Shown here: in pieces, positions 643-51,467 of the stretch
Numbering within the stretch: the stretch's first letter is position 1
Layout of the letters: each line of letters begins with the position of its first letter
IMG/VR virus record: IMGVR_UViG_3300035208_004923
Location: 256,001 to 320,000 of that record
Length of the DNA: 64,000 nt
Direction: 5' to 3' (one strand)
DNA from: a virus
Lineage: Duplodnaviria; Caudoviricetes
Notes under the pieces: model-generated
Seen by the model: the letters and a program-made list of their open reading frames with translations, nothing else
Database searches by the model: none
What the model was told of the DNA's origin: nothing
Program-made: the position numbers and the translations under genes

Positions 643-1269
643 TTAATACATATTATTCGGTATGTATCTGCTTTTGATATAATCAGCAACAGCAATTAGT
701 GCTTTAGGCTCATGTTTGCATGCATCAGCAAGATCGTCAGCCATAACTTTCAATTGTGGCCATGCATCAATTTTACCCCACGAACTTGTGCCATTCATGA
801 AAAAACCTTGTACTTGGAATTTTGTATCTTTATATTCGCCAAATCCTCTTGATTTACCTGTTGTGTAATCCCATACTCTAAAGAATATAAATCCTAATGC
901 AGGATGTTCAAAGCAAACAACAGTAGTGTCTGTGTATTGTTTGTTTTTGATAATTTTAGATGGAGTCCATTCTTTTTTGTTTGGCGCAATTACTAAATTT
1001 GTTAGCACATCAACAACTTCTTTACCATTTTTGTACGCTTCTGTTGTGTATAATCTAATTGACGTATAATTCCATCCATCAGTTTTCCAATTACCTTTTG
1101 TATCAATTTCACGAAATTCATCAGGTGTTCCTGCACATCGTGGAACAACTTCTCCTTGATTAAAACCTGGTGCTTTATTGAAACGGTTGATGTAAACGTC
1201 CATGTCTCCAAATAATGTAGCACTTTCGTTTAATGCAAAATCTTCGATTGTTGGTATTCTTCTTATCAT
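643..1269 (-). CDS. Leader-family protein (putative internal head protein)
   Basis: N-terminus MIRRIPTIEDFALNES. Confidence 0.65.
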   Translation of the reverse strand: MIRRIPTIEDFALNESATLFGDMDVYINRFNKAPGFNQGEVVPRCAGTPDEFREIDTKGNWKTDGWNYTSIRLYTTEAYKNGKEVVDVLTNLVIAPNKKEWTPSKIIKNKQYTDTTVVCFEHPALGFIFFRVWDYTTGKSRGFGEYKDTKFQVQGFFMNGTSSWGKIDAWPQLKVMADDLADACKHEPKALIAVADYIKSRYIPNNMY

Positions 1270-1270
1270 A

Positions 1271-1492
1271 TTATATTTTGATTTTATTTATTTGTGTTTC
1301 TAATTCATCTGCAAAGTTTTGTTCAAAATCGCTGGCATCAGCTGATTTGTTATATGCAGTTTTCAAATAGTTATATGCATGGTCATCAAGTTGTTTGAAT
1401 TTTTTAGGGTCATGACCTAATAATACTAAATATTTATCGAATGATTCTTTTTCATCTATAAATTTGTCGAATGACGGTATTCTTTTTTCCAT
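1271..1492 (-). CDS. Leader-family small protein (start re-called at 1492)
   Basis: Internal ATG gives MEKRIPSFDKFIDE and removes the overlap with the upstream ORF. Confidence 0.65.
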   Translation of the reverse strand: MEKRIPSFDKFIDEKESFDKYLVLLGHDPKKFKQLDDHAYNYLKTAYNKSADASDFEQNFADELETQINKIKI

Positions 1493-1500
1493 AATTTTAT

Positions 1501-1698
1501 TTACCAGTATCTTTTTACACAAAATTTTTGTGGTTTCTTTACGTAACTTTCCCATGCACAACTGCAATATGGACAGTGACTTCTATGAACTTCATTGAAA
1601 AACATGCATTGAACACAAATTCTTACTCTAGACCGTGTCAATTCATTTGCACCTACGGGTAAAAATTTCTTATACAATGCTTCTTCTCGTTCTGTCAT
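1501..1698 (-). CDS. Small Cys-rich (Zn-ribbon) protein
   Basis: CVQC...CPYC; TGAATATATAA motif just upstream. Confidence 0.5.
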   Translation of the reverse strand: MTEREEALYKKFLPVGANELTRSRVRICVQCMFFNEVHRSHCPYCSCAWESYVKKPQKFCVKRYW

Positions 1699-1793
1699 AG
1701 TATTTTATTTTATATATTCATAGAACAAAAGACAAAAAAAAATCCAGAGCAATTGCTCTGGATTTGAAAACCAACCGTTAAGATTAGTTTATG

Positions 1794-2225
1794 TTATTTG
1801 TTTTGAATATTGACTTTTATAGGGGCAGCAGATTCCGAACGAGGAACCTTGATTGTAAGTAAACCTTTATCCATAACTGCCACAATTTGTTTCAAATCAA
1901 ATTGGGAGCCAATTTTCCAACCCAAATTGAATGAACGGCGTGTGATGCCGCGGTGTATGTAATGATCTTCGTCACTGACTGTATCACCACTTTTTTTATC
2001 ATTAGATACTCTTAAAATATCAGATTCAACTGCAATATCAATATCATCAGATGTTAATCCGATTGCTGCAATATCAAATTGCAATCCTTCTTTTGTTTCT
2101 TTAATATCAACAGGATAAGAATACTTAGATTCTTGAGCAATGTTAAACATTGATTCCGTGTTAAAGAAATCTTTAAATAAAACTTCGAATGGGGAATTTC
2201 CCAAAATAAAACGATGTTGTGTCAT
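1794..2225 (-). CDS. Small heat-shock protein (Hsp20/IbpA family)
   Basis: YPVDI, YIHRGITRRSF, MDKGLLTI motifs; 143 aa. Confidence 0.9.
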   Translation of the reverse strand: MTQHRFILGNSPFEVLFKDFFNTESMFNIAQESKYSYPVDIKETKEGLQFDIAAIGLTSDDIDIAVESDILRVSNDKKSGDTVSDEDHYIHRGITRRSFNLGWKIGSQFDLKQIVAVMDKGLLTIKVPRSESAAPIKVNIQNK

Positions 2226-2334
2226 AATTAATCCTCCTAAAATAGATTTTTTTTTAATTTGTTTTTGTTACGTTAATTTTTGTTTGCCTAAGCTAAACAG
2301 TAATAACGGTTGGTTTTATTATATATTCAGAAAC

Positions 2335-3237
2335 TTATAAAAGTTTTGAATTTTCTTTATAATTTACATAAAATTTTTGAATGAAAACTTTAGCGTTATC
2401 TGTTTTAAAAACTTTATGTTTTGTTTTTGCTCCAACTTTTGGCGCCATTGTTACTTCGCAAATTGTCATAATGGATAACGCGTTTTTATCATATACTAAA
2501 TGTAATCCAGATTCGTCACGTTTTGATTTACGCATTACAATAATTGATTTATCGTTATATGGCAGCTCATTATTTACCATAATTTTAATAGCACCTATGT
2601 TACCTGCATATTGCAAAATTCCTGGAATTTCATTTGTCACTGTATCAGCATGAACAAACATTGACATATCAATAAATTTATTTAGCAATCCTGGTCCTAT
2701 TATACAAATATCACCGGAACCTCTTCTGCATGTAATTGCAACTTTATTGCCAAATAAAAATAATTTGCCAAGTAAACTTGTATTATTTTTAACATTATAT
2801 GATTTAATGTATGTTTTACTAAATAATTTGTACACCCATGTTTTTAATTTATCGAATCTTGTGAATGATTCCAAATAATTTTCATGTCCTAATGAATATA
2901 TTTCAGACAACACACTTCTGATAAGTTTATTTTTTGTGCATTCAATAACTTTTGATGTTGATGCTTCAACCGCATCAACGCCGCATGCTTTCATATCATA
3001 TACATCAGTAGCAGTCATTGTTATACTTTCAAAAACCGTGTCTAATTCTGCTACGTGTTGATGCAATTGTAACCCAATTTGGGCTTGCTTATCATTTGTT
3101 TCTAATGCAACAAAATCAAGATAATTATGTACATAATTATCACCTGAATTTTGTATTACATTTACTAATGAATTGATATTAGCATCTTCATATATGAATT
3201 TTGCTAATGTGTCGATATTGTCTTTACTTAATTGCAT
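2335..3237 (-). CDS. Divergent gp23/gp24-like capsid paralog
   Basis: AITCRRGSGDICIIG..YAGNIGAIKIMVN..IIVMRK aligns by eye with ISQRGRRGPANFIV..VGAVAGMTVYVD..VLVGRK of the major capsid in this window. Confidence 0.6.
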   Translation of the reverse strand: MQLSKDNIDTLAKFIYEDANINSLVNVIQNSGDNYVHNYLDFVALETNDKQAQIGLQLHQHVAELDTVFESITMTATDVYDMKACGVDAVEASTSKVIECTKNKLIRSVLSEIYSLGHENYLESFTRFDKLKTWVYKLFSKTYIKSYNVKNNTSLLGKLFLFGNKVAITCRRGSGDICIIGPGLLNKFIDMSMFVHADTVTNEIPGILQYAGNIGAIKIMVNNELPYNDKSIIVMRKSKRDESGLHLVYDKNALSIMTICEVTMAPKVGAKTKHKVFKTDNAKVFIQKFYVNYKENSKLL

Positions 3238-4073
3238 TCTTTATGTTTTGCTATTATTTGTAATCTTTCTAATTTAACTTTAAATACTTCTGGGTATTTA
3301 ACAACATACGGAATCATACGTATATAATGTCCGATTTCTAATAATTCGATAAAATTCATTTTATCGTTATTGAAATTGAATTGTGTTTTAATTTCATTAA
3401 AAATTTCATTGAAGAATTCCATGTCAGAAAACCTAGTTTCTTGGAATAATTTTGAAAGATCTAATAAATAAGATGGCCACATATCATTTTTGAAATTCGG
3501 GTCGATTAATGTATACTTTTCGCCATCCCACAAAATATTATCAACTGTAAAGTCTCCATGAAAATATGATAATGAAGAATTTGCAAATTGCGAATATTTA
3601 AGTATTAACGGTTCGTATGCAAACCAATCGAATCCTTCAAATAAATCAGGATTTCTTAAAACAATTTTTTTAAGATATTCAATATATGCTTCAAATGTCA
3701 ATTTTGGCGGAATTCCATTTGCAAAATTTGTAGGCATATTTTGTTCTAACCACATGCTTGCGTTTGCACCAAAACGTTCGCTCGCAGGCAATTTTATATG
3801 TCTTGCAATTCTAACAAGGTCTGCTGCATTATTTTTATTCATCGGTTTCGCATCAATTTTATTCATGCTGAATCCTGTTTCTTCAATTTCGCTTATCAAA
3901 TATAAATGACTAAATCCGTATTCTGGAAATTTATCTTTCATTATATTTAACCAATAGAATTGACGTTCAACAAATTGCTTTCTATGAATGTCATTTGTAT
4001 ACTTATAAACTGTATGAGAACCTATTTTGAATTTCTCGTGCGAATAACCTTTTACTTCTGTTACGTTTTTCAT
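3228..4073 (-). CDS. Aminoglycoside/choline-kinase-like phosphotransferase
   Basis: HGDFTVDNIL and LIDP motifs. Confidence 0.75.
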   Translation of the reverse strand: MKNVTEVKGYSHEKFKIGSHTVYKYTNDIHRKQFVERQFYWLNIMKDKFPEYGFSHLYLISEIEETGFSMNKIDAKPMNKNNAADLVRIARHIKLPASERFGANASMWLEQNMPTNFANGIPPKLTFEAYIEYLKKIVLRNPDLFEGFDWFAYEPLILKYSQFANSSLSYFHGDFTVDNILWDGEKYTLIDPNFKNDMWPSYLLDLSKLFQETRFSDMEFFNEIFNEIKTQFNFNNDKMNFIELLEIGHYIRMIPYVVKYPEVFKVKLERLQIIAKHKECN

Positions 4074-5425
4074 TAAAATAATGATTTAGATTTAGATTTT
4101 CTTTTTACTGAATCATCGCGTTCAAGTGACAATTCAATGTCGATACCTGTTCTTTTGAATGATTTGTTTAATATGTCATAAACAAAAGTACCAGTTTTTG
4201 CTTCTTTTAATAAGTTGTATTGCAATCCTTTTACCAATGCAATACGTTTATCCGGATTTGCATCAAGATAATCCATTTTTTTATAAAGATCCTCAGGAGT
4301 TTTTACTCTAATGAAATGGTCAGCAGGAACAACAGAGTTTTGTGTATCGTATCCTGGTACAAGAAACGGAACAACACCTTGCGCAAGTGTATCTGCCCAT
4401 TTTGCTGTACTCCAATCTGCTCGAATTCCTTTAACAACAGTATATCTTGTTTGACGTAATTTTGCATCCATTTCTTGATATGGTATCATTCCTTTGAACC
4501 AATCTTCATAACCAGCAATTACTTCAGGTGACCATTTACCGTAAATTTCAACTTCTTTTTTATCGTCATATTTAAAAACCCAAGTTTTTAACATTTCTAA
4601 ACGGTCATCATAACCTGCGCCTTGTCCATATTTTGATTGCATAACACCCATAAGTAATCGTATCGGTCTATCGTTATCTGGCGGATATATCGGTTCCTGT
4701 ATTCTTGCAAGTTTTTCGATTCCTGTTGCTTCTAAACGTAAGTGTTTAACAGTTTCATTGCCAACAGTTTCTTCATTGCCTTCATAACAATCGACACTTT
4801 CCCACGTAACAGCCTTTTCAAATTGTGAAATGATTTCACGTGGAGTATTCATGGTATCACGTTGACGATACACATCTTTTACGTATCGAGGATCTAATGA
4901 TACATTATACCAAGGTAATTTTGTCATGTTTAGAAAATGAACAACAGGCGCACAATAATTATATGTAACCCATTGTACACGAACACGATGTTCAGGTATT
5001 CTTACAGCACCTAAAAAATTTGGAATTGAATTATTTGTGAAATATCCCATTCCAGAAAATAAGTATGCGGTATCTAAATTGTGTTTATCTTTGAAGTGCT
5101 CGTAGAAATTTCTGTAATTAGTGCAAAGTTGAGTATCTTCATTTTTCTTTGGCGTTACACTCGCGCGTGAAAAACCAGGTTCTTCAGAATACGGGTCGAA
5201 TAAAACGCCTCGTGGGTCGAATTCTATTTTTTCATTTTCAGGCAAATCTGCCCAATCAGATTTTTGCAATAACATTACATGCGAAATTGATTTATTACGA
5301 ACAAGTGACCATAACATTTTCCAATATTCTAATGATCCATCGTACCGTTGTATTGTATCTTTTTTGAATTTTAACGCACACCCAATTGCGCCAAATCCGA
5401 TACGAACGTTCTCTGTTTTTGTCAT
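4073..5425 (-). CDS. GT-B glycosyltransferase, possibly DNA-modifying (beta-glucosyltransferase-like)
   Basis: DPRY, EIYGKW, TAKWADTLAQGVVPF, DYLDANPDKR in a GT-B C-terminal pattern. Confidence 0.55.
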   Translation of the reverse strand: MTKTENVRIGFGAIGCALKFKKDTIQRYDGSLEYWKMLWSLVRNKSISHVMLLQKSDWADLPENEKIEFDPRGVLFDPYSEEPGFSRASVTPKKNEDTQLCTNYRNFYEHFKDKHNLDTAYLFSGMGYFTNNSIPNFLGAVRIPEHRVRVQWVTYNYCAPVVHFLNMTKLPWYNVSLDPRYVKDVYRQRDTMNTPREIISQFEKAVTWESVDCYEGNEETVGNETVKHLRLEATGIEKLARIQEPIYPPDNDRPIRLLMGVMQSKYGQGAGYDDRLEMLKTWVFKYDDKKEVEIYGKWSPEVIAGYEDWFKGMIPYQEMDAKLRQTRYTVVKGIRADWSTAKWADTLAQGVVPFLVPGYDTQNSVVPADHFIRVKTPEDLYKKMDYLDANPDKRIALVKGLQYNLLKEAKTGTFVYDILNKSFKRTGIDIELSLERDDSVKRKSKSKSLF

Positions 5426-22798: not shown

Positions 22799-24508
22799 TT
22801 ATACTAAACCTCCAGCTGGAGTAGCAACGAAGAATGTGAAATACATTGTTTCTGGGTGGAAACCTGCTTCAACAAGAGCGTAACGAGATTTAACGGCAAC
22901 TTTCGGAGTCATTGTACCTTCAGCAATTGTTTGGATAGTTTCAGCCATCAAGTAAGGCATGTATTTTAATCCTGGTTCTTCATCAGCACCTTTACGTCCT
23001 ACTAATACACGAGTATCAGACCAAGACATGTTAGGGTCAACATATACAGTCATACCTGCAACAGCACCTACTGGGTAAAGTGAACCGTTGTTTTGGTTGA
23101 TTGTATTTGCCATTGGAGCAAATGTGAATTGTGCAGAATCTTGTAAGATTGTAGCGATTTGAAGGTTTGTAACAATGAAGTTAGCAGGACCTCTACGACC
23201 TCTTTGAGAGATTACGTTACCACCAGCAAGAATTCTTGAGAAAACTCTACGTTGAACAGTCCATTGGTTTTCAAATGCTGCAGAAGGATTAGCTCCAGCG
23301 AACAATGACATAACAGGAACAGACATTGTAGTAGTTGCACCGTCTTTATTGTTGAATGTTTGGTAAGTTGTACTAGCACTTGGGTCAGTTTGCAAGTTGA
23401 AGTTTTGACCTTCTACTTCAGCAAATGTATTGTGGTTAGTCCATCCTAAAGCAAACGCTCTTGATAAGATGTGTTTGTTGATTGATTGAGATACTTCGTT
23501 CACTAATGAATTTTCAACCATACCTACAACATCGATACCGAATTGACGGTTAAGATCTTGTATTTGTTCAGTTGTTACAGTAGCAGCAGCTTGGTAAGTT
23601 TCAGCTTCAACGAACTTAGTGAATGTTTGAAGACCCATAGTTCTGTAGTAAGTTTGTTCACCAATACCTCTTCTCATTGGTTCTGGGTTAGAAGCACCAT
23701 TTGCATAGTTTCCAGTCCAAGCATCACCATCTTGAGCACCAGCACCAGTATATCCTTGGATATGATCTTCTAAAGCTTTCACTAAAGAAGCAGTTGCAGT
23801 ACAAGGTGTAGCAGCAGGAGAACCATCAGAATCAATTGTAAATGCAGATCCAGTGTTGAATACATCAGCAACTAATAAATGAGGAGTTGAGATAGAAGCA
23901 GTTTGCCAAGCAGAACCGATTTTATATTTTTCGCCAGATTTAAGAGCACGGAAGATTTTGTATGCATCGATACGAGATTTACCAATATAGATTAACTCTA
24001 AGTTGTTTGATCCTGAAGTTGCAACATATTTAGTACCTACTGTGTAAGAACCACCGATGTTAACTTTAATCATTGTTGGGTTTTCTGCGTTTGCATCAGA
24101 TGGGTCGTTTGGTAATTTACCACCAGCATAAACGTAGTCAAGGTAAGTTAATACTCCTGAAGGACCGTTCATTGGAATTACAGGTACAATATCAAAACCG
24201 ATTGTTCTAGCACCAACTTGGATTGCAAGAGGTAAAAGAGAAGGGAATTTGTCACCTGAACCAGTTGCAGCGCTATGGAAAGCAGCACCACCAGCAACTT
24301 GACCTGTAGCCACGTTACCCATACCTGGAGTGTTTTGTAAAGATGCAGCAGGCCATGCCCATCCGCCTACGAAAGAAGATTCATTCAAAGCGTGGAAGTG
24401 GCAATATTTTGATAACCAAGCAAGTTTACTTTTGTCTGTAATTTGCGTTTTTTCTTCTACGATTGGTGCCCATTCTTCGAAAATTTGTTTTTCGTTTAAA
24501 AGTTTCAT
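22799..24508 (-). CDS. gp23: Major capsid protein, T4 gp23-like (probable start MKLLNE at 24508)
   Basis: IVPVIPMNGPSG, QIQDL, RGRRGPANFIV, YMPY, PKVAVKSRYAL; strongly biased codon usage; terminator at 22740-22767. Confidence 0.93.
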   Translation of the reverse strand: MKLLNEKQIFEEWAPIVEEKTQITDKSKLAWLSKYCHFHALNESSFVGGWAWPAASLQNTPGMGNVATGQVAGGAAFHSAATGSGDKFPSLLPLAIQVGARTIGFDIVPVIPMNGPSGVLTYLDYVYAGGKLPNDPSDANAENPTMIKVNIGGSYTVGTKYVATSGSNNLELIYIGKSRIDAYKIFRALKSGEKYKIGSAWQTASISTPHLLVADVFNTGSAFTIDSDGSPAATPCTATASLVKALEDHIQGYTGAGAQDGDAWTGNYANGASNPEPMRRGIGEQTYYRTMGLQTFTKFVEAETYQAAATVTTEQIQDLNRQFGIDVVGMVENSLVNEVSQSINKHILSRAFALGWTNHNTFAEVEGQNFNLQTDPSASTTYQTFNNKDGATTTMSVPVMSLFAGANPSAAFENQWTVQRRVFSRILAGGNVISQRGRRGPANFIVTNLQIATILQDSAQFTFAPMANTINQNNGSLYPVGAVAGMTVYVDPNMSWSDTRVLVGRKGADEEPGLKYMPYLMAETIQTIAEGTMTPKVAVKSRYALVEAGFHPETMYFTFFVATPAGGLV

Positions 24509-24539
24509 TTTATTGAATTTTTTTATTTTAATGTTTGTT

Positions 24540-26591
24540 TTATCTGTTGAATCTATCAAGATTTGCTTTTACGCTTTCCATATAGCTTTTGCTATATCCA
24601 CGTTGTGCAGCTCCAGTTTCTTCAACAATTTGAGCATTTGCTGATTCGTTCAGCGTACCGTTGCCTTCAACTTTATGCAATCCACGAGTTTGCCAGAAAT
24701 TGATTACTTGTCGTTCAGTATTCAATGGGTACAATTTCGATTGTGAAGCAATTTGATTCTTTGCAGATTCAGTTAGAGATTCCCAAGTTGCTTTGTACTC
24801 CTCAGGCATTTTTTCTAACCATAGGTCAGATTTTGGTGCTAGAGATTGAGTTGCTGCTCTTTCAAGTAAAGCAGTCATTTCTTCTTTACTTTTGTGGTTG
24901 TTTTCATTGATAGACGATGCAATCTGTTGTTTTTGAATGTCTGTAAAAGAAATAAATTTCTTAACTTGTTCGCCATCTAAATTCTTTAAGAAAGGATAAT
25001 TTTCAATGTGTTCATTGATTGGATTCATCTTTTGTGTTTGGATAGATTCCAATAAGTTGTCAATTTTGCTTCCTAAAGAAGTATATTTACTTAATATGTT
25101 TTCTTTTTCATTAACAACAGCTTCATTAACAATTGGAGCAGTTGTGTTTGTTTTTACGCTTTCAGAAATTGCTTCAGCAAAACCTGCAACGTTTTCAAGA
25201 TCTTCACGAGTTGCAGCATTTTCACCTAAGTAATCAGCGTATACGTGAACTTCGTTTGTTTTCTCCATGATATAATCTTGGTAGTTCCATAAGTGATTAA
25301 TTTTTTCAGTAATTACTTCTTGGATATAAGATTGTGTTTCATGTAATTCTTTTGCTAAAACTTCTTCAGCATAATTTAAACCGTAATTTGCTTGTTCTGC
25401 AATTTTCTCAGAGTAAGCAATATTTTTTTCAAGTAACGGTCTAATTTTATCGTTTAAATAACCAGCAACATAATTATGATCTTCAGCAATTTTTTCAGTG
25501 TATGCAGCAACATGATTATGATCTTCTGCAATACGTTGTGTATAATCTGCTAACCAGTTATGATCTTCACCAATCAATTCAACATAATTAATTGTATCAG
25601 AAACATATTTAGAAAGTTCATTAGAATATTTCTTGATTGTAACAATTTCACCTTCAAGAACTTTAATTCTTTCATTTGTTTCATCGGTTGTAGATTCTTG
25701 TGGCTTAACAGATAAAGATTCCATTTTCTTAGTCATTTCAGCGATTGCCGATTCAAACTTTTCCATTTGTTCTTTAACATGTAAAGAATACTTGTACATA
25801 TCTTCAGCCGTAACAGTATTATTATTTTTTTCCATGCTTGATGAATTATTTTTATTATATATTGCTTCATTCAATGCATTTTTTTCAACTTGTGCATTTT
25901 GGGTTGAAGCAGGTTTTGTTTTCTTTGTTAAACTAAAATCATATATACTAAAATCAGCACCTTCAATTAATAAATCAGGATACTTATCAGTCACATCGTA
26001 TAAATTAATGCCATCAGCACCATTGAATCCTAATTCTTTATTTAATGAAGGTAATTCAGTTTCCATTACTAATCCTGAACAGATAGATTCGTATACACGT
26101 TCCATTTCAGCATTATCGCCAAATCCGCCATCCGCAACTAAATCATAAGTGAAGATTCTTTTGATTTTAACTTCTTTGTTTTCTTTAACAACACCTGCAG
26201 CTCTAGATGAAATACTAATAGGGAAACCTGAATCAACAAGTTTTCTAGCATTTAAACCAGCAGGGTCAGTATCTAATAATCGAATACGTCCTTTAAGTGT
26301 ACGTGTTTCTTTATCATACCAAATTTTTTCAACAAGATGTGAAATGTTTGCAAGACTTACATCGAATTTTTCAGGATGATCTAATTCACCAGCTAATTTA
26401 TTTCTTTTGATTTTTTCTTGTAAATATTCCAAGTGTGGCATGTATTCGTCTTCTTCGTAAATTCTATGATTTACGTTTTCTTTACCGAATACACAAAAAA
26501 TTCCTTCAAGAATATAATTGTCTTTATCAACAACTTTAAATTCATGACCAGATTTTTCAGTTAATAAAAATACCTTAGCGTTTTTTGACAT
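24540..26591 (-). CDS. gp21: Prohead protease (gp21-like) fused to a long coiled-coil scaffold (gp22-like)
   Basis: LEGIF..ENVNHRIY, GELDHP, SHLV, ISSRAAG, TYDLVADGGF; C-terminal helical region with 14-aa EDHN repeats. Confidence 0.88.
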   Translation of the reverse strand: MSKNAKVFLLTEKSGHEFKVVDKDNYILEGIFCVFGKENVNHRIYEEDEYMPHLEYLQEKIKRNKLAGELDHPEKFDVSLANISHLVEKIWYDKETRTLKGRIRLLDTDPAGLNARKLVDSGFPISISSRAAGVVKENKEVKIKRIFTYDLVADGGFGDNAEMERVYESICSGLVMETELPSLNKELGFNGADGINLYDVTDKYPDLLIEGADFSIYDFSLTKKTKPASTQNAQVEKNALNEAIYNKNNSSSMEKNNNTVTAEDMYKYSLHVKEQMEKFESAIAEMTKKMESLSVKPQESTTDETNERIKVLEGEIVTIKKYSNELSKYVSDTINYVELIGEDHNWLADYTQRIAEDHNHVAAYTEKIAEDHNYVAGYLNDKIRPLLEKNIAYSEKIAEQANYGLNYAEEVLAKELHETQSYIQEVITEKINHLWNYQDYIMEKTNEVHVYADYLGENAATREDLENVAGFAEAISESVKTNTTAPIVNEAVVNEKENILSKYTSLGSKIDNLLESIQTQKMNPINEHIENYPFLKNLDGEQVKKFISFTDIQKQQIASSINENNHKSKEEMTALLERAATQSLAPKSDLWLEKMPEEYKATWESLTESAKNQIASQSKLYPLNTERQVINFWQTRGLHKVEGNGTLNESANAQIVEETGAAQRGYSKSYMESVKANLDRFNR

Positions 26592-29247: not shown

Positions 29248-29906
29248 TGGAGGTGCGGGGATTCGCAAATGTTATCAATATGTTTCCATATTGTTCAGAC
29301 TATATCATCAACTGATTAATAACGATTAATCAGTGTCGGGCGCTTTATCCTGTTATTAAGGAAACTGTATTCCTCAGGTAGTCGTTGAACCTTCACAAAT
29401 TGTAATTTGCGCTTGGCTGCTGATTGGCATATTCAATTGAACTTAGCGTTCCAGCAATTCACCCGATTTATTTTTACTTGGTGTCACCACCAAGGGGGTC
29501 CAATTCCCATTTAAACCCCGGTCCTAGCAAACGAGCCAAAAGCTCTCTACGTGCGTGTGTTATTTTTGGTATTCGACAATTTCATCAATGAGAATAACCT
29601 GAAACTCGATGAATTGGTTTTAACAACAAAAAGTCATATACAAAATGATGTTGTTATCACATTAAGATATGTTACCAAATTGTTTGAAACCCACATATGA
29701 TTGCGTTAGGTAAATTGCAATCGAAGGTTGCTCTTTGCTTAATCTGATTAAGCAGCCATTAGCATTGACTCTCTTTCGAAAGTTGCTATTGAACGAAGTG
29801 CATTGTTAATAGTTTTGCCTATTATGGTTTTGTACGATATATGATTAGTACAATCATCAGCACGCGAACTTCGAACACTGAAAGCAGTCAAAAGCCGGTC
29901 ACCCCC
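29248..29906 (-). ncRNA. ssrA: tmRNA interrupted by a group I intron
   Basis: 5' GGGGGTGACCGGCTTTTGAC; 3' CACCTCC-A forming an acceptor stem with a G3.U pair; T-arm CGGGG-TT|CGAAT-CCCCG; tag ORF 29819-29748 GKTINNALRSIATFERESMLMAA*. Confidence 0.92.
29266..29513 (-). mobile_element. Group I intron (248 nt, no ORF) in the tmRNA T-loop
   Basis: P AATTGCTGGAA, Q AATCAGCAG, R GTTCAACGACTA, S GATATAGTC; P1 pairing GGGGTT/GACCCC with U.G at the splice site; terminal G. Confidence 0.9.
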
Positions 29907-31286: not shown

Positions 31287-32495
31287 TTATTTTTTAGTAT
31301 ATGCGTCAATTTGTTGTCCTACTTGCCACATTGCAAATTCTATAGTTTTCTTATCACCTATTGCTTTTATCGGATTATCCGATATTTTAACAGCAGGTAA
31401 TCCATCGCATTCCGTTAATTTGATAACGATATTCATCGGTTTTATGTCAGGTAAATCATTTGTAAACCAAGTTCCGATTGCAGGTCCTCTTCGAATTTCG
31501 CCTACACGATATGCCATTACCTTTTCAACTTCTTCCCAATTCATTCCGTCAGAGTATGTTATGGTTTTAGTTGTTGGGTCGATTCCTAATTTTTTATAAT
31601 GTGCAATCATTTTATCCATGTAAACTAATGGATCGCCAGAATCATGACGTGTTCCTGTGAATAAATTTGCAAACATTGAATCAAAATCGACTAAGAATGC
31701 GTCGGTTGTAAATGTGTCAGGAAGTGCAATTCCTAGGTTACCATTATAAACCGACACCCATGATTGCATTGCATGGCGATTTGGATGAGAATAACCAAAC
31801 ATTGCAGCATGAGCAGAAACCCATTCATGAGCAAATGTTCCAATTGCTTTTATTCCGTATGCGCACGCAAGTTCAACATTTGATGTTCCAAGTAATGTAT
31901 CTTCAGCATAATCAACAAAAGTTTTTACAACGTTTTCATGATTACGTGGAGAATATGCTCTACGTGTTCCAAATTCAGCAAAAGGTATTGAATTCATGCG
32001 GAATTGGGACGCCTTTTTTCGATGAATTTCAGTTATTGTATCAGCATCAACATCAATAACTTGATTTGTCATTTTGTAAAACAAATCACAAATTGCAGCC
32101 ATTAATGGAACTTCCCAAAGAATTGTTCTGTACCAGTAACCGCTTATTGTTAAAATCAGATGACCTTCATCATCTTGGATAACTCCAACTTCAGATGGGT
32201 CAAAACGATATACTTCAAGAAAATCAATAAATGCCATTGGCAAGAAAGGACATTTTTCAGCAAATTCCTTTTTACGTTGTTTCGACAATGTACGATTTCT
32301 GAATCCGTCAATAACTCTACGAAGTTCAACGTCAAATCCTTTTGGATATACTGTGTTATTGCGATCATTGAAAGTGTATTTCACCTTTACATTAGGGAAA
32401 CATTTCAAAACAGCCCAACACATCGTAAGTTTATACAAGTCAGTGAATAAAATTGATTCATAATTCGCTGGTTCAATAGATGGCGTGTATTTCAT
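31287..32495 (-). CDS. pncB: Nicotinate phosphoribosyltransferase
   Basis: TDLYKLTM, EFGTRR, GTSNV, GTFAHEW, RHDSGDP, SDG, VKISDNPIK. Confidence 0.95.
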   Translation of the reverse strand: MKYTPSIEPANYESILFTDLYKLTMCWAVLKCFPNVKVKYTFNDRNNTVYPKGFDVELRRVIDGFRNRTLSKQRKKEFAEKCPFLPMAFIDFLEVYRFDPSEVGVIQDDEGHLILTISGYWYRTILWEVPLMAAICDLFYKMTNQVIDVDADTITEIHRKKASQFRMNSIPFAEFGTRRAYSPRNHENVVKTFVDYAEDTLLGTSNVELACAYGIKAIGTFAHEWVSAHAAMFGYSHPNRHAMQSWVSVYNGNLGIALPDTFTTDAFLVDFDSMFANLFTGTRHDSGDPLVYMDKMIAHYKKLGIDPTTKTITYSDGMNWEEVEKVMAYRVGEIRRGPAIGTWFTNDLPDIKPMNIVIKLTECDGLPAVKISDNPIKAIGDKKTIEFAMWQVGQQIDAYTKK

Positions 32496-43844: not shown

Positions 43845-45008
43845 TTATTTATCATCATCACCCCATGATACACCTGGACACATATCAGTATATGAACTCC
43901 CAAAGTATTCACCAAAGATTCCTGTGAATTTGATTAATGCAACACCTAATCCTTTAACAATTCCCCATACCAAAGATAGACAAATTATTTTCCAAATTAA
44001 AGTTACAAAGATAAAGTATATAACAGGAAACAATACATAATCCCATATTGCAATAACCCCATGACCGAACCATAAGAATGGCTTTGCATATAATGGTACG
44101 TTTCCTTTTTTCTCCCATTGATTAACCGCTTTAATAATCAGTGCACGTATTGAATATAAAAGTAAACCCACAGGTAAGCCGCCAGCAATTCCATAACCCA
44201 ATATTTTACCAACAGTAATCAATACAGCAAGTACAGCAGCGCCATTCCACACAGAAACAAGTGAAAGAACACCCCATGTCAATAATTGACCTAGATATGA
44301 TAATCCAATAGCAACAGCAATAGTAACAACTAATCCAACAAATTGTTTTGTCAGTTTCACTACTTGATTGAAATTTTTAACTTCAAATGTAAATGTATCT
44401 TTCAAAGATTTGCCTATCGGTTTAAATATATCACCAACCGCATTTAATTTTGTTTGAATTTTTTCTCTACGTTCATCACGTTTACGTTCGCGTTCTTGTT
44501 TAGCAGCACGTATTAAATTGTATGCAGAATTTTTTTGTTTCTTCAATTCTTCACGTTCAATTTTAATTTTTTCAAACATTGCAGCTAATTTTTCACGATA
44601 CTCAGGATCATCACGTTTGAGATCATTCGCTTCAGCCCATTCGCCTAACATATAAGAATCGGAATAATTTTCTTTTGCAAACTTAGGACGTTTAATAACT
44701 TCATCTTCATACCAGTTTCCGTAGTACAAATCGAATGCTTCAGCCAATGATAATGTTTTAATCCATCGAGACACTGCGGCTTCTTTAGATTTTCGCCAAG
44801 CAGTTTTAGTGCCGCGAATTAACATGCCAATTAATTTGAATGGCAATACTGGCACCACAAGAATCATGGATGCGATTGTTACCCAAAAATACGGGCAAAG
44901 ATTTTTCAAAGATCTTGGGTCAGGCAACGAATTCCCAAATACAAATTTAATCAACTTGTAATGCCATTGTTTTTCATTTAAAGAAATGAGTTTTACTTTT
45001 TCTTCCAT
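43845..45008 (-). CDS. Multi-pass membrane protein
   Basis: NLCPYFW motif, coiled coil, several TM segments. Confidence 0.6.
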   Translation of the reverse strand: MEEKVKLISLNEKQWHYKLIKFVFGNSLPDPRSLKNLCPYFWVTIASMILVVPVLPFKLIGMLIRGTKTAWRKSKEAAVSRWIKTLSLAEAFDLYYGNWYEDEVIKRPKFAKENYSDSYMLGEWAEANDLKRDDPEYREKLAAMFEKIKIEREELKKQKNSAYNLIRAAKQERERKRDERREKIQTKLNAVGDIFKPIGKSLKDTFTFEVKNFNQVVKLTKQFVGLVVTIAVAIGLSYLGQLLTWGVLSLVSVWNGAAVLAVLITVGKILGYGIAGGLPVGLLLYSIRALIIKAVNQWEKKGNVPLYAKPFLWFGHGVIAIWDYVLFPVIYFIFVTLIWKIICLSLVWGIVKGLGVALIKFTGIFGEYFGSSYTDMCPGVSWGDDDK

Positions 45009-45089
45009 AAGGACTTTAAGATTTAATTAAGTTAAATAATATTTGTATATTATATACAAGTATGGTCAATAGTTTTAAAAATCAGGAAT

Positions 45090-45224
45090 TTATTTTTCCT
45101 GATTTTCGATAATAATACTTAATTGACCGCAAGCAGCACCATTTTTAATTTCTGCTTGTGTAGCAACAGCGATTGCAAAGTCAAACCCTGCGTTTTCCAA
45201 TTGTTTTTTGATGTTTTCGTTCAT
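45090..45224 (-). CDS. 44-aa peptide equivalent to the RlmN/Cfr C-terminal catalytic-Cys segment (absent from the ORF track)
   Basis: MNENIKKQLENAGFDFAIAVATQAEIKNGAACGQLSIIIENQEK. Confidence 0.8.
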   Translation of the reverse strand: MNENIKKQLENAGFDFAIAVATQAEIKNGAACGQLSIIIENQEK

Positions 45225-45253
45225 GATTTCTAATTTTTATTTGTGAATATTAA

Positions 45254-46141
45254 TTAATAGATTACTTTTCCGTTAAATCCTTCTCTAAGATTTGCGCCAT
45301 CAAAGACAAGTAGATTTGTTGAACAACTAGGTTTTATTGCACACCTAGAATATGTTTGTACTGCATCATAGTTTGTGTTTTTTGGAATGTACATATAATT
45401 GTTGCATTTGCAAATATCTTTATAATGCCATTCTTTTATATTATGCAAGTTATTGTTTGTTTCGATTATTGTGCTAAAATCAACATAATGCGATTTTGCA
45501 TATTCATTCGCTTTCATTAAAGAAACAAATCCTGTATCATGAATTCCCATAGATGCCGCAGCTTCAAGGTATTCTTGTATTTTTTCATTTGAATCAATAT
45601 GACCTTTGATTATGTTACAACTTAAATGCAACTTAAATTTGTCAGTTGTATTTTTTTGTATTCTTGTAATATCTTTATCTGTTGGTGCATTGAATCCCAA
45701 TATCGTATTATTAATATCATTATCAAAATGATGTCGGCTTAACGATATGCTATTTAGATATTTATCAAGTCCTAACGAATACAATTCATTTAAATTTAAC
45801 CCATTAGTATTCAGCACACGAAATGCCGAAGGTACTTTTTTTCTAGCAACATTAACAGCAGCAATAAGATTTCCAAGTTTCAATGTAGGTTCACCACCTG
45901 TAAATGAAATTTTGCGAATTTCGATTTTTTTTGAAACTTCGGTTATTGCATCTGTGAAAGCGCTCAAATCAAAATATGTTGCAACATCTTTAAATTCGCA
46001 GAACGGACAATTTGCATTGCATCCTCTAAATTGAACATACATGTTTACGTATGGACGTTCAACAGGACATTTAGCATATCCTTTTTGTTCGCAATAATAA
46101 TCCTTTAGTTGGATTGTTTTATCAAAAAGTTTAAATTCCAT
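45254..46141 (-). CDS. Radical SAM protein
   Basis: CNANCPFC, FTGGEP, LNTNG, SRHH. Confidence 0.9.
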   Translation of the reverse strand: MEFKLFDKTIQLKDYYCEQKGYAKCPVERPYVNMYVQFRGCNANCPFCEFKDVATYFDLSAFTDAITEVSKKIEIRKISFTGGEPTLKLGNLIAAVNVARKKVPSAFRVLNTNGLNLNELYSLGLDKYLNSISLSRHHFDNDINNTILGFNAPTDKDITRIQKNTTDKFKLHLSCNIIKGHIDSNEKIQEYLEAAASMGIHDTGFVSLMKANEYAKSHYVDFSTIIETNNNLHNIKEWHYKDICKCNNYMYIPKNTNYDAVQTYSRCAIKPSCSTNLLVFDGANLREGFNGKVIY

Positions 46142-46147
46142 AGCGAT

Positions 46148-46480
46148 TTAACATCTGCTTATACTTGAACTGCTACTACGACCACAAGGATCTACCAATA
46201 CACGACGTTCAACACGGACTGGTTCTAATCTTGTTTTTAAGCTAGAAATTTCTTTTTCTAATTTATCAATTTCGCCCTTGAATCCTTGAATCAGCTGTTT
46301 CTTTGCATCAATAGCGGCTTCAATTTCTTTATCTCTTAAGAATGCATCTAATGCTTCAATCGAAATTTGTCCGGAATTAACAAAAAGACTAGTTGCGTGA
46401 TTTCTGAATTTGCTAAAATCGTTATTTTTTTCTAACCAGAATTTTAAGTATTCTGTTAAGAAAGTTTTTTCGTTTGCCAT
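46148..46480 (-). CDS. Coiled-coil protein with DPCG-Ser-rich-RC tail
   Basis: Ends VDPCGRSSSSSISRC; lies between two radical SAM genes. Confidence 0.55.
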   Translation of the reverse strand: MANEKTFLTEYLKFWLEKNNDFSKFRNHATSLFVNSGQISIEALDAFLRDKEIEAAIDAKKQLIQGFKGEIDKLEKEISSLKTRLEPVRVERRVLVDPCGRSSSSSISRC

Positions 46481-46486
46481 TTGCTT

Positions 46487-47275
46487 TTATTTTAAATTTA
46501 TACCTTCGATAACGCCAAGTCCTAAATCATTTGATTCTGATGTTTCATTCGGATTAATTGGACTTAATTTTATGAAAAACTTTTCAGTGTTAAAATGTTT
46601 TACTAATTCTGCAATATCAAAATCAGATTCATCAACCAATGTAAGATTTAACGTAGTTTTTAAATTGCTTTCAGTTCGAATTTTACCAAGTTCCGCAATT
46701 GTTAATTTATTTTTAAATGGAATCAACCAATTACGTTTTTCCTCAACAAAACTGTGTATACTTATTTGTAATGTAATATTACCTTTTATCCAAGAATAAT
46801 CGGCATCTTTAATTCCGATTGTTGATACATAATGATGAACGTTCGGATATAATTCAGTTATTTTTGCAATTGCTTCTTTTACATTTTTTATGTTTAAAAA
46901 AGGTTCGCCCATTCGTGTCCAATTGATTTTAAACTCAAATGAATCTTTCGGGTTAATACCAGGGTTTGACTCAATAATGAACTTTACTTGATTTATCATT
47001 TCATCGGCAGTCAGATTTCTGTATTTTTTCAATTTGCCTGTTGCACAAAACTTACAACGAACAGGACATCCTGACATTGTCGATACACCTATCATCCAAC
47101 GTTCAGCACGTGTGCCAAGTTCTTCAGAATCAAGACAATTTTGTTTACGTCCAATTGCATCTTTTGTGTACGATGGCAAAAATGTATCGGTTGTTTCGAT
47201 TAAATATCCATCGGATGTTCTTAATGCATATACAATACCGTTTGCGAATTCTTTCTTTTTAATAACTTCTATCAT
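46487..47275 (-). CDS. RlmN/Cfr-like radical SAM enzyme, C-terminally truncated
   Basis: IET, VSTMSGCPVRCKFCATG..RNLTADEM, MGEP, VSTIG, LQISIH..R..LIP; no AACGQL. Confidence 0.85.
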   Translation of the reverse strand: MIEVIKKKEFANGIVYALRTSDGYLIETTDTFLPSYTKDAIGRKQNCLDSEELGTRAERWMIGVSTMSGCPVRCKFCATGKLKKYRNLTADEMINQVKFIIESNPGINPKDSFEFKINWTRMGEPFLNIKNVKEAIAKITELYPNVHHYVSTIGIKDADYSWIKGNITLQISIHSFVEEKRNWLIPFKNKLTIAELGKIRTESNLKTTLNLTLVDESDFDIAELVKHFNTEKFFIKLSPINPNETSESNDLGLGVIEGINLK

Positions 47276-47855
47276 ATCAATTATTTTAATTTTATTTTAT
47301 TTTATATACAGAACAATTATTTAGTTTTATATTTAGTAGGCATATTATCAGGATATCCTAATGAAGCTTTAATAGTTTCGATTATGTTGTATATTTCTTC
47401 CTTTCCTTCTTCAAGTTCTTCATTTGAAATATGTCCTTGCGCTTGTTGCAATCCAGAATGTATAATAAAAGCATTTTCTAATAGTTGAATTACATTATTA
47501 ACTTCTTGCCAAGAACGTTCGCCATTACACATATTTATTGCATTCATATGTATCAATTTTGATAACCGCATTTTTCGCATACTAAACCTGATACCATCAT
47601 TTGTCCGCAATTAGGGCATTCGATTGAATTTCTATCTTTTGGGATTTTCGATTGTTTCTCAAGTTGTTTCATAAGCCATTTCATCAAAGTTGATTCATAT
47701 TTAGGATTGCCGTGAACGAAAACTACATTATCCGATGTTTCAGTATCGAAACTTATTGACTCAATAACAGGTGCTGGTTTTGAATAATCAGTTATAAAAT
47801 GATATTCCTTTTCAAACTTTAGTTTATCGTTTTCCATGTTTATGTTTTAAAATAA

Positions 47856-48107: not shown

Positions 48108-49154
48108 TTATTTTTTGCTATTATCGAGAATGTTCAAAAAATCGGCACGAATCATATTTGACCATTCAGCACCCATTCTTTTTGTAAGTACTTTTTGTTC
48201 TTTTAAATCAAGTGCTTCAAATGATTCTCGTTCATCCTTTAAAAAGTCGTTCATTGTGTCTCCCATGCATTCACCCACAATTTTACCGAACATTTTATCG
48301 TTAAGTTCACCTAATTTTGAAATAACCGCATTTAAACGATTTTCATTAACATATTGCATCAATGTTTCAAGTAATTCATTGCCTGCTTCTGATAATTCGA
48401 TTGCTTCTTTTGGTTGTTTCATTGATTTTTCTCCAGATTTCTTTCCAGTGATTTCAGCATATTTTTCATTTTTGTTTTTGAAAATTACACGGTTACCTGC
48501 CCATGAACGTTTTACTTCAATTGGCTTAATAACAACACCTTCACAAACATTACCTTCAATTTCAGGTAAACCTAATCTTTTAGGAATTGTTGTTGGAAAT
48601 AAATTTGGGTATTTAAGGCATTCGTTAAAAGTTCCTTCGAATAAAGGTTCGTCCCAAAAAATACCGAATTGCTCGCAAAGTTCACCTTTTTGTGTTTCAC
48701 CTAATAAACGTCCATTTACTTTAATATCAAAACAGTAAAATTCATTAGTTGGTGAGTAAAATAAACCTTTTTGTACTGCAGTTGCATGTGGATTTCTTGG
48801 TACATCTGGATGAGGATATGTACCGCCGAAAAGTTCACCGTATACTACAAGTTCGCCAAGGTCAAATTCCATACCAAAATCTTTGATTTCTGATTTGATG
48901 AAATCCCACATAGCAATAATTTTAGGATTTTCTTTTGTTGCAACTTCTTCATAATTGAAAAAGTTTTCAGTTGCATCAATGAATCCTGTTCTTTTTGCAT
49001 ATTTCATTTTTACACCATCATACCAAAATGAAAAATTTGAATTGTGAACAAGAATATCATCGGCAAAAAAGTTATGATTATCTTCAACTTCAATATCATG
49101 TCTTTTTGATTTAATGTCAATTTTTTTAATCGACTTGATTCCAACTATTTCCAT
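48108..49154 (-). CDS. rnl2: RNA ligase 2, C-terminal part, preceded by a split-intein C fragment (38 aa)
   Basis: ..DIEVEDNHNFFADDILVHN|SNFSF; YGELFG, FDI, EGVVIKP, FKNKNEK, NRLNAVISKLG. Confidence 0.9.
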   Translation of the reverse strand: MEIVGIKSIKKIDIKSKRHDIEVEDNHNFFADDILVHNSNFSFWYDGVKMKYAKRTGFIDATENFFNYEEVATKENPKIIAMWDFIKSEIKDFGMEFDLGELVVYGELFGGTYPHPDVPRNPHATAVQKGLFYSPTNEFYCFDIKVNGRLLGETQKGELCEQFGIFWDEPLFEGTFNECLKYPNLFPTTIPKRLGLPEIEGNVCEGVVIKPIEVKRSWAGNRVIFKNKNEKYAEITGKKSGEKSMKQPKEAIELSEAGNELLETLMQYVNENRLNAVISKLGELNDKMFGKIVGECMGDTMNDFLKDERESFEALDLKEQKVLTKRMGAEWSNMIRADFLNILDNSKK

Positions 49155-49157
49155 GTT

Positions 49158-50087
49158 TTAATTGTTTATAAAATTAATTATGTTATTTATCGTTTCTTCA
49201 AAATTTTTATTTATGTCGTATTCCCATACAACGCATGTTTTATAGCCTGCAGCTTCTATATAAGAAATACGGTTTTTATCGTGAGTCCAAATATCCACAA
49301 CTGTTCTTGTCGAATTTCTTGGAAATTTGATTACGTCGTTTTCTTTATACTTTCTTGGGTTAGCATGCCAATAATCACCATATGCTTCTATTACTTTATT
49401 TGTGTTCTTAATGAAAATATCAACCCTATAAGGATATACATTATATTCAGTTTTTGTTTCGTACCCTAATTTTAACAATTCATTATTAATTTTTTGTTGC
49501 AGCTTAGATACATTTCCACCAAATTTATTATTCGGTGATTGGATAGGATATCTATATCCGTGTGATTCTTCATAGTTATCAAAAAACTTCTTCGTAAATA
49601 CTGGAGATTGCATATGGCTAGCAAAACCGTATACTTCAATATGATGAGCAATAATTTTTCTTTTTACATCTTCTCTTTGAAATACATTTGTTATATTTTC
49701 ATCATCAAGCAAACGTTGTGTCCATTCCTTTCTTGATGTATGTTCTTTACAAAAGTTATGTTTTGCGCCGTGTCTTTCCAAGTTTGTTGTTTCCGTTTTG
49801 TCTTTGCAACGTTTTTCTTTTTTTGATTCTTTTATACTACGAGTTCCTATGCCATGCGCATTCATTAATTTGTTAACCGAACATGATGAACGAATTCCAT
49901 GTTCATGCGCAATTTCATTACATGATTTCCCGTTTACCCAATGTTCATTATATAGAAATTCCTTTGTTAAAATTTCTTTTTTGTACGTTTGCCATTCCTT
50001 GCATTGCCATTGAAAATGATTTGATATTACATTAGGCCGTGTCACTTCGATTTCTTTTTTGCAAAAAGGACATTGATAAAGTTCCAT
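49158..50087 (-). CDS. Free-standing Vsr/DUF559-like endonuclease between the split-intein halves
   Basis: CPFC; VDIFI..VIEAYGDYWHANP..D..R..GY...VWEYD. Confidence 0.8.
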   Translation of the reverse strand: MELYQCPFCKKEIEVTRPNVISNHFQWQCKEWQTYKKEILTKEFLYNEHWVNGKSCNEIAHEHGIRSSCSVNKLMNAHGIGTRSIKESKKEKRCKDKTETTNLERHGAKHNFCKEHTSRKEWTQRLLDDENITNVFQREDVKRKIIAHHIEVYGFASHMQSPVFTKKFFDNYEESHGYRYPIQSPNNKFGGNVSKLQQKINNELLKLGYETKTEYNVYPYRVDIFIKNTNKVIEAYGDYWHANPRKYKENDVIKFPRNSTRTVVDIWTHDKNRISYIEAAGYKTCVVWEYDINKNFEETINNIINFINN

Positions 50088-50152
50088 AAAATTTATTTTT
50101 ATTTATATATCAATATTCTTTTGTGAAAAATTGCACAAACTGTAATTTTTCA

Positions 50153-50617
50153 CTAATCTATAAGAACTTTATCATTTGTTGTTAAATCTTTAACTTGTCT
50201 CCAGCAATGTAATTCGGGCAACCAAATATAATGAGACCCTGTGACTTGTATGATTTTGCCATTCGTTGTTTCAATTTCATACCAATCATTGTTATCTTCT
50301 TTAATAGAAAAATTAATAACACGTTTCCATTCAATTTCATTGGTATCAATATTCAAACTTTTGGCATGACAATCAAGTCTTTCTTCAATTATCTTTCCTA
50401 TTGCAAGCTTGCCAAATTCTAAAGTATCAACAAGTGATTCATAAGTAAGACAACCATGCACTTTTTCTGATAATCGCCAAACGCCACCTGCATTGCCTTG
50501 TTCTGTAATTCTGTCAATTTCACGACCACGATATGTGTTCTCAATTTCTGAATATTTCGTAAATTTTCCAGGAACAAATGTATGTTCATTTGTTGTGTTA
50601 ATGATTTGATCTTGCAT
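50153..50617 (-). CDS. rnl2: RNA ligase 2, N-terminal part, fused to a split-intein N fragment (99 aa)
   Basis: FTKYSEIEN..SEKVHG|CLTYESLV..IQVTGSHYI..WRQVKDL; probable start MQDQ at 50617. Confidence 0.9.
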   Translation of the reverse strand: MQDQIINTTNEHTFVPGKFTKYSEIENTYRGREIDRITEQGNAGGVWRLSEKVHGCLTYESLVDTLEFGKLAIGKIIEERLDCHAKSLNIDTNEIEWKRVINFSIKEDNNDWYEIETTNGKIIQVTGSHYIWLPELHCWRQVKDLTTNDKVLID

Positions 50618-51467
50618 TTTTCGTAATTTTAAATTCGTAATCAATTAAATTATTTCGTTTGTTTATCATTGCGTAATTTGTTGCTTTTTCTAATAAGTTC
50701 AGTGTATTTGATGTTATTTTACCTTTATTTAATAATGAAACGATTGAAGCGTATGGCATATTATTTTGTTTCGCAAATTTTATCATTTCGCTCACACCTA
50801 AAATTTCGATAATATCGTGTGTCGGTGTAATAACATTATAAATTATCATTTGCCATTTTCTTTTATATTCTTTATATTCGTCACTTCTTTTTTTACCCGT
50901 ATTCGATTCTCCTATTTTAGCTCTATGCTCTTCTGTACTTTTGTGTCCTCTTCTAAATGTATGCAATCCTTCATTTTTTGCAAATGTTAAATTCCATTTT
51001 TCTTTTGCTGCGCTACGTTCTTCATCAGTTATTTTAGTTTGCGCTTCCTGCATTGATGCTTTTACTTTTATTACATATACAGGGTCATTCCAACGTTCTG
51101 CTGTTGCTTTGCCTATTTTTTGTTTTGTTGAATCTTTTAATACTTTTTCTTTTGCTGCTTCGGACATGTGTTGTCTATGCGAATCAGTGAAAACTAAACC
51201 TTGTGTGCCGCCTCCACCATCTGTTAGATTATATCCTATATTTGAATCCTTTGCATGCAATTCTTTTATCCAAAAAATTTCTTTTTCGTTTAGTTCATCA
51301 GTTGTATTAGCGGTATCAATAATTTCTTTTTTGAAATTCTCAATGCCATATTTTTTTATTGCTTTATTTATTAAAATGCCTGAACCAAAATAATTAGGAT
51401 TATTATGCGAATCTTGGCCAACGTAAATTTTGCCATTAATTAAATTTGTTATTTTATAGATAATCAT
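50598..51467 (-). CDS. GIY-YIG homing endonuclease
   Basis: IIYKITN..IYVGQ..YFGSG, EIFWI, GYNLTDGG, NUMOD3-like repeats. Confidence 0.9.
   Translation of the reverse strand: MIIYKITNLINGKIYVGQDSHNNPNYFGSGILINKAIKKYGIENFKKEIIDTANTTDELNEKEIFWIKELHAKDSNIGYNLTDGGGGTQGLVFTDSHRQHMSEAAKEKVLKDSTKQKIGKATAERWNDPVYVIKVKASMQEAQTKITDEERSAAKEKWNLTFAKNEGLHTFRRGHKSTEEHRAKIGESNTGKKRSDEYKEYKRKWQMIIYNVITPTHDIIEILGVSEMIKFAKQNNMPYASIVSLLNKGKITSNTLNLLEKATNYAMINKRNNLIDYEFKITKNARSNH

Follow-up and report, generated by a model that had tools for sequence, protein, structure and literature searches.

The window analyzed in this work is a 64,000-nucleotide (nt) stretch of viral DNA (IMG/VR virus record IMGVR_UViG_3300035208_004923; positions 256001-320000 of contig C1, which is 425,361 bp long and binned in a 1.6-Mb genome), and it contains a four-gene unit encoding, in order, an RlmN/Cfr-type radical S-adenosylmethionine (SAM) protein (E), a small protein with a Cys-bearing tail (T), a second radical SAM enzyme (R2) and a 44-amino-acid (aa) protein carrying the motif GAACGQL (P). 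We assign a probability of about 0.7 to the reading that E and P are the two pieces of a single class-A (RlmN/Cfr-type) radical SAM enzyme, genetically coupled to T and R2 here and in at least 16 other contigs. A preliminary description of this DNA, made from its letters, had proposed that the AACGQL Cys is located on a separate small protein and that the position of RlmN Cys118 holds no Cys; both features were found to belong to a conserved split system. New in this analysis are the independence of Cys118 loss from the split, as seen in the tree, the occurrence of fused and permuted forms, and the conserved E-T-R2-P unit. In the literature searched, which left most subscription journals uncovered, no split or C118-less RlmN-type phage enzyme is described.

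The RlmN-type core and its detached Cys loop

E carries the cluster motif CX3CX2C (C70, C74 and C77) and matches the Pfam radical SAM family PF04055 at 37.7 bits, against a cut-off of 29.5. The RlmN model TIGR00048 matched E with an E-value of 2.8e-19 over model positions 82-301 of 355, and an AlphaFold2 (AF2) model of E, with a predicted local distance difference test (pLDDT) score of 86, had E. coli RlmN (3rf9) as its best structural match (Z 22.9, root-mean-square deviation 2.4 Å, 227 residues); the Z score was 16.2 with Cfr and did not exceed 12.8 with any other radical SAM fold. E aligns from its residue 1 to RlmN residues 79-328 at 24-26% identity; the N-terminal helical (HhH2-like) RNA-binding domain of RlmN (residues 1-78) is absent from E by both hidden Markov model and structure matches. 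At its other end, E stops approximately 25 residues past the last barrel strand, without the C-terminal Cys loop (Cys355 segment). E is therefore, as first described, an RlmN-like enzyme that ends without AACGQL, the loop being located on P. The Gly reported seven residues before the first cluster Cys was likewise recovered: in a HMMER alignment to solved RlmN (6fz6), IGVSTMSGC of E faces VCVSCQVGC, which makes Gly63 the equivalent of Cys118. Gly63 is invariant in 18 of 18 aligned E sequences (down to 35% identity), and in this 18-sequence alignment no Cys of E beyond the cluster motif is conserved.

P is made up of a helix, a strand (GFDFAIAVA) and the GAACGQL loop with Cys32, its only Cys, and its residues 5-36 are homologous to the RlmN-type tail of contiguous relatives. 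The small open reading frame (ORF) is conserved: a six-frame scan located an A[AG]CGQ ORF in every related locus, with P kept in 83 of the 83 scanned. P lies downstream of E in all 80 crAss-like IMG/VR contigs, at a distance of 20-47 nt in 78 and 1187 nt in 2, and it directly follows E in Kehishuvirus 'tikkala' and Moorella phage MTATph1, but comes one gene later in Yersinia phage P778. The P module of Vibrio phage D479 (L003, OZ195776; positions 4803-5084) is tandemly duplicated within one 93-aa ORF, the copies differing at a single residue (N/D). The P consensus is M.xIKxQLExMGYDYAVAIATKSEIENGAACGQL. Pooling of 35 distinct nucleotide versions of P gave synonymous (pS) and nonsynonymous (pN) polymorphism values of 0.73 and 0.116, respectively, and a pN/pS of 0.16. 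Judged from these sequences, P is a real gene under purifying selection and the E/P split is old. Contigs from wastewater metatranscriptome libraries span all of P (45035-45320); E, T and R2 are covered in part, with stretches of R2 and E left uncovered. These RNA-library pieces are weak evidence for transcription of P, and DNA carry-over is possible.

E and P were co-folded as alignments, together with a 4Fe-4S cluster and SAM. The pair scored 0.80, compared with 0.02 for the best of three controls; in calibration, 58 of 80 solved complexes and 2 of 110 mismatched pairs attained the mark. Contact agreement among runs was at least 79%, and the pLDDT of P was at least 69. The closest contacts were made by P F14-A17 with E F233-L237, while the Cys-loop half of P contacted E residues 68-69, 77-79 and 120-122, corresponding to the cluster loop and the TRMGEP motif.

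A search of a 5.8-billion-protein database returned 2291 homologues at E-values up to 1e-5. Family representatives (n = 96) were placed in a quick IQ-TREE phylogeny, with support from the SH-like approximate likelihood ratio test (SH-aLRT), for which the careful search is unfinished. The tree divides at 99% support into two clades, of 34 and 62 members. The clade of 34 has the canonical two-Cys form, with a Cys at position -7 in 32 members and a mostly contiguous CGQ tail. Within the clade of 62 this Cys is present in no member; 23 members are contiguous, 36 are tail-less (split) and 3 are N-fused. As split and contiguous forms occur together in the clade lacking C118, the loss of C118 does not depend on the split and, on the tree, is older than it. 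Contiguous relatives include P0198 and P0219, with P0188 and others also contiguous and without the C118 Cys; in P0133 the P module is fused at the N-terminus of E, and P0145 is a triple fusion in which P and E are joined to a second radical SAM domain. A profile-based locus search with alignment A2 recovered the same close relatives again and added no diversity. The C118-less clade is abundant in crAss-like and huge phages.

Two further groups of relatives were observed. One is an additional tail-less subfamily (P0193, P0204, P0214 and P0221 among 12 representatives) of approximately 270-285 aa with the pattern IGVSL.SGC...C.YC, in which the chain ends directly after the GFxYAxR strand, without a Cys loop. 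The other consists of more distant RlmN-like proteins fused to isochorismatase (P0184, P0200, P0207), NUDIX (P0192) or HD (P0247) domains; these fusions to small-molecule nucleotide hydrolase domains hint that free nucleotides, and not RNA, are what parts of the RlmN-like superfamily act on.

RlmN is the dual-specificity C2-methyl synthase for 23S rRNA A2503 and tRNA A37, and Cfr is the C8-methyltransferase for 23S rRNA A2503; to our knowledge, no other class-A radical SAM methylases have been characterized, and the ping-pong mechanism by which these two work, with two cysteines, is a textbook case. E/P has in common with RlmN (E. coli; 3RF9/3RFA, 5HR6/5HR7) the barrel with extra strands, the CX3CX2C motif and the AACGQL methyl-carrier Cys loop, but differs from it in bearing this loop on a separate protein, in having Gly in place of Cys118 and in the missing N-terminal domain. 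Cfr (9P0P) has the class-A chemistry and motifs that E/P would share, is the weaker structural match and, unlike E/P, keeps both Cys (C105 and C338) in one chain.

The four-gene unit and the T/R2 module

The four ORFs are present as claimed in the preliminary description, all on the minus strand within 45090-47275 (Table 1). Gaps between successive genes are 6, 6 and 29 nt, all four genes end with TAA, and E, T and R2 have a common reading frame, with P in another. Read-through linking E, T and R2, considered in view of this common frame and of the suppressor-anticodon tRNAs of C1, was ruled out by the four TAA stops. An intron or intein joining E and P was also ruled out, in agreement with the earlier statement that no such signatures connect the parts: no Rfam family matched anywhere across 44800-47500, and a Pfam search identified no intein domain in E or P, although the neighboring RNA ligase does match. 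Fractured genes with split inteins, such as this Rnl2-type ligase in the window, resemble E/P in that one protein is encoded by separate ORFs with genes between them; because E and P lack intein halves, their pieces must act non-covalently.

A promoter had been placed at approximately 47305. The recurrent motif at this site, AAAACT-N12-TGTATATAA, is real: the window has 11 copies of its nonamer where 2.0 are expected, and 0 of 100 shuffles reach 11, with 10 of the 11 copies on the minus (coding) strand and AAAACT preceding each. Contig C1 as a whole has 31 copies of the motif, on one strand only, and the other 77 contigs of the bin have 0. Its role as a promoter is our inference. The copy upstream of E and the next copy just after P make a single four-gene unit plausible.

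Table 1. Genes of the E-T-R2-P unit and flanking motif copies (window coordinates)
Feature	Position	Strand	Description
E	46487-47275	-	262 aa; RlmN/Cfr-type radical SAM core; ORF, profile and structure match
T	46148-46480	-	110 aa; helical, with Ser-rich tail DPCGRSSSSSISRC at the C-terminus
R2	45254-46141	-	295 aa; second radical SAM enzyme, MoaA-like fold
P	45090-45224	-	44 aa; contains GAACGQL; equivalent of the detached RlmN C-terminal segment
Promoter-like motif AAAACT-N12-TGTATATAA	47302-47328	-	Upstream of E
Next promoter-like motif copy	45050-45076	-	Just past P; marks the unit end

R2 was confirmed as a second radical SAM enzyme (Pfam Radical_SAM, 40.3 bits), with cluster Cys C41, C45 and C48 and four more invariant Cys at C17, C175, C244 and C246. 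Its AF2 model (pLDDT 94.5) had MoaA (2fb2/1tv7) as its best PDB matches, followed by viperins; against MoaA, the template modeling (TM) score was 0.61-0.67 over 289-294 columns, with 19% identity. R2 is nevertheless below the curated MoaA cut-offs (TIGR02666, 37.9 bits vs 284; TIGR02668, 41.7 vs 325). No SPASM/twitch domain or RiPP recognition element (RRE; RiPP, a peptide made on the ribosome and then modified post-translationally) was matched in R2 by Pfam at E-values up to 0.1, a search that distant twitch-like elements could escape. MoaA (GTP 3',8-cyclase; 1TV7/2FB2) and the viperins thus resemble R2 in fold over its full length, and the extra invariant Cys of R2 could, by analogy with MoaA, hold an auxiliary cluster; R2 differs from MoaA in being paired with a small Cys-tailed protein.

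That protein, T, has a helical body followed by a Gly/Ser-rich tail. Across 9 aligned T homologues, the only invariant residues beyond Met1 are the two Cys of the tail, Cys99 and the C-terminal Cys110, which are 9-11 residues apart. Relatives of T were sought with a word-based search, which returned T alone, and in the ESM Atlas, which gave no lead. T adjoins R2 in most loci examined, and R2 most likely acts on, or through, the Cys-bearing T tail. A Cys-tailed small protein encoded beside a radical SAM enzyme is also the arrangement of radical SAM RiPP pairs (SCIFF/ranthipeptides, sactipeptides, mycofactocin MftA/MftC), from which T/R2 is set apart by the length of T (approximately 100 aa, the N-terminal part being long and helical), by the phage setting and by the lack of a detected SPASM or RRE in R2.

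The E-T-R2-P order recurs in at least 14 other phage contigs (loci L088, L089/L090, L170/L171 (503 kb), L172 (456 kb), L173 (322 kb), L174, L175-177, L183-185 and L188), and two more contigs are rearranged (L187, E..P-R2-T; L189, R2-T-E-P). Identity across the linked loci is 31-60% for R2, 18-38% for T and 59-74% for E, and the E proteins of T/R2-linked loci fall, together with two-gene forms, in one clade supported at 99%. The idea that T/R2 is a one-off insertion, suggested by its presence in 0 of the 80 closest IMG/VR loci, was overturned by this recurrence. T-R2 is also found without E/P at no fewer than seven loci (L006, L007, L179-182 and L190), and three huge phages carrying T-R2 have no E homologue anywhere in the genome. 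We take E/P and T/R2 to be two modules that can be separated but have been linked repeatedly. Each also occurs alone, and it is reasonably likely that they serve one pathway. Coupling of E/P to a MoaA-fold enzyme and a Cys-tailed protein suggests a multi-step radical pathway without a described counterpart.

T/R2 is not the only radical SAM partner of E/P. In loci L084 and L086, E is separated from P by a gene for a 255-aa radical SAM protein and one for a class-I methyltransferase; in L168, the P-E fusion is followed by a radical SAM gene of 239 aa and a Ser/Cys-rich ORF of 51 aa; and L185 has an L084-type radical SAM gene in addition to T/R2. R2, the 255-aa protein of L084, the 239-aa protein of L168 and the C-terminal domain of P0145 have only generic radical SAM similarity to one another (E-values 1e-3 to 3e-5), although a closer relationship may exist between the second radical SAM parts of L168 and P0145.

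Candidate mechanism and competing explanations

By analogy with RlmN, E would serve as the cluster- and SAM-binding barrel, with the P strand docking beside the last strand of E and the Cys32 loop reaching over the cluster/SAM site. Cys32 would be S-methylated by one SAM, and the 5'-deoxyadenosyl radical derived from a second SAM would then generate an S-CH2 radical that attacks an sp2 carbon of the target. The step after this is where the clade departs from RlmN, in which C118A/S variants accumulate a covalent protein-RNA cross-link and C118 has been called indispensable for its resolution (PMC9692996, PMC5130265); C118 is thought to be the general base (PMC9692996). Every member of the C118-less clade lacks the resolving Cys as these variants do, but the variants are stalling laboratory mutants, whereas the loss in the clade is natural, ancient and clade-wide, so that some other outcome or release route must exist. 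As E and P also have no other conserved Cys, either another base or H-donor would release the adduct, or it would not be released. A large natural clade does without the 'indispensable' resolving Cys, and its methyl-carrier loop has been moved repeatedly to a separate, fused or permuted module; for enzymologists this is a natural experiment in how the cross-link is resolved, or exploited.

The neighboring Rnl2 and CCA-adding enzyme genes and the 53 tRNAs of C1 are a hint of a tRNA target, while the missing RNA-binding domain argues for a target other than tRNA. More broadly, the system is a pointer to phage modification of RNA, DNA, nucleotides or protein.

Several points weigh against a two-piece class-A enzyme coupled to T/R2. 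E scores 69.3 bits against the TIGR00048 equivalog cut-off of 290, and 51.9 against the 550 of TIGR04432; it is also without the N-terminal domain of RlmN, and something other than RNA may therefore be its substrate. The proposed methyl transfer, radical step and target are all drawn by analogy. Co-folding of enzyme and peptide, recommended as a check in the preliminary description, did place the P loop over the cluster/SAM site, but the pass may derive from model memory of solved RlmN structures; it indicates likeness to RlmN, not binding. The link between the modules is one of gene neighborhood. E/P occurs without T/R2 in at least 80 loci, and the presence of unrelated second radical SAM genes by E/P could reflect a general 'radical SAM island' instead of one pathway.

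In an alternative reading, neither T/R2 nor the other second radical SAM genes have any relation to E/P; they would be passengers with functions of their own at an E-P junction that tolerates insertions, a possibility of some weight although not the one we favor. It would account for the 78 of 80 crAss-like loci with nothing between E and P, for the different insert of L084/L086, for the occurrence of T/R2 without E/P, and for L179, where T-R2 is itself interrupted by a 233-aa ORF. It does not sit well with an adjacency that holds across rearranged gene orders and deep divergence of R2 and T, with the location of E and P within 3 kb in 9 of the 16 IMG/VR loci with full-length R2, in genomes of 40-500 kb, or with P0145, whose single chain unites P and E with a further radical SAM domain.

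Accepting E and P as one enzyme, P might instead be a sacrificial peptide: the S-CH2 link would be left unbroken, P would stay thiomethylene-bridged to its target (a base, a nucleotide or the T tail), and the split would spare the enzyme. C118A/S RlmN builds up just such a cross-link (PMC9692996, PMC5130265), E has no conserved Cys outside its cluster motif and P has a single Cys, and the tandem P module of Vibrio phage D479 is as expected of a stoichiometric reagent. We nevertheless consider this unlikely. The contiguous (P0198, P0219, P0188 and others) and N-fused (P0133 and P0145) relatives without C118 would be suicide enzymes, which weakens the case for a P that stays on its target; P comes last in the unit, and no copy of the promoter-like motif serves it separately; and the general-base role thought to belong to C118 (PMC9692996) could be filled by another residue. 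It is also quite improbable that E/P constitutes a natural 'peptide-tagging' system, with P (or the fused enzyme) S-CH2-bridged to an adenine-like base or to an R2-modified T tail; if it did, phages would be making a peptide-nucleic acid or peptide-protein conjugate that is genetically encoded.

P could also be regarded as a RiPP-like substrate that E, and perhaps R2, modifies into a released bioactive peptide, being a small gene by radical SAM enzymes and present in tandem copies in one phage. This is very doubtful, given that P corresponds, residue for residue, to the strand and loop at the C-terminus of RlmN-type enzymes and is the same module as in contiguous relatives, that it is highly conserved including the would-be core, and that it has no leader/core architecture, with no protease or exporter gene seen in the four-gene unit. 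Equally little probability is given to the suggestion, made in the preliminary description, that the resolving Cys comes in trans from T. The two tail Cys of T are invariant on a flexible segment and T lies between E and P, but T is missing from most E/P systems, among them those of the Moorella and Vibrio phages and of 78 of 80 crAss-like loci, and when the modules are apart T goes with R2 and not with E, as in the huge phages that have T/R2 and no E homologue. A recent disruption that left RlmN pseudogene fragments, for which nothing speaks but the split itself, was rejected, since the split recurs in hundreds of phage contigs from distant lineages, contiguous homologues notwithstanding, with P under purifying selection and both ORFs intact everywhere examined.

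Genomic setting and neighboring genes

Almost all long ORFs of C1 are on one strand, and the window encodes a major head protein (22799-24559), a head protease (24540-26591), PhoH, a CCA-adding enzyme and an Rnl2-type RNA ligase. The final 4096 nt of C1 repeat its positions 498-4593, and C1 is probably a huge phage of approximately 421 kb that was mis-binned into a metagenome-assembled genome. Its DNA is also present in landfill, groundwater and wastewater runs. The 53 tRNA genes of C1 (ARAGORN) are all on the coding strand and are located outside the window, around 8.8 kb, 47-73 kb and 125.6 kb of C1. Among them are two suppressor tRNAs, with anticodons TCA (for UGA) and CTA (for UAG), a sign that stop codons may be recoded in some of the genome.

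The Rnl2-type ligase (48108-50644, minus strand) is a 'fractured gene' in separate ORFs, of which 50153-50644 holds the N-extein (EKVHG) and the intein start, and 48108-49154 holds the intein C-terminal block (VHN|S) and the remainder of the ligase. The free-standing 309-aa ORF between these pieces (49158-50087) looks like an endonuclease by its position and a GDYWH-type motif, and the whole arrangement looks like a split intein with a putative endonuclease gene between its halves. A group I catalytic intron was identified at 29276-29523 (minus strand) as a full-length match to Rfam RF00028 (105.5 bits). The window also includes a nicotinamide phosphoribosyltransferase-like gene (31287-32495, minus strand), and in two huge phages (L006 and L007) a NadR-like ORF, recognized by its N-terminal motif only, adjoins T-R2; NAD-salvage genes seem to recur near E/P and T/R2 modules.

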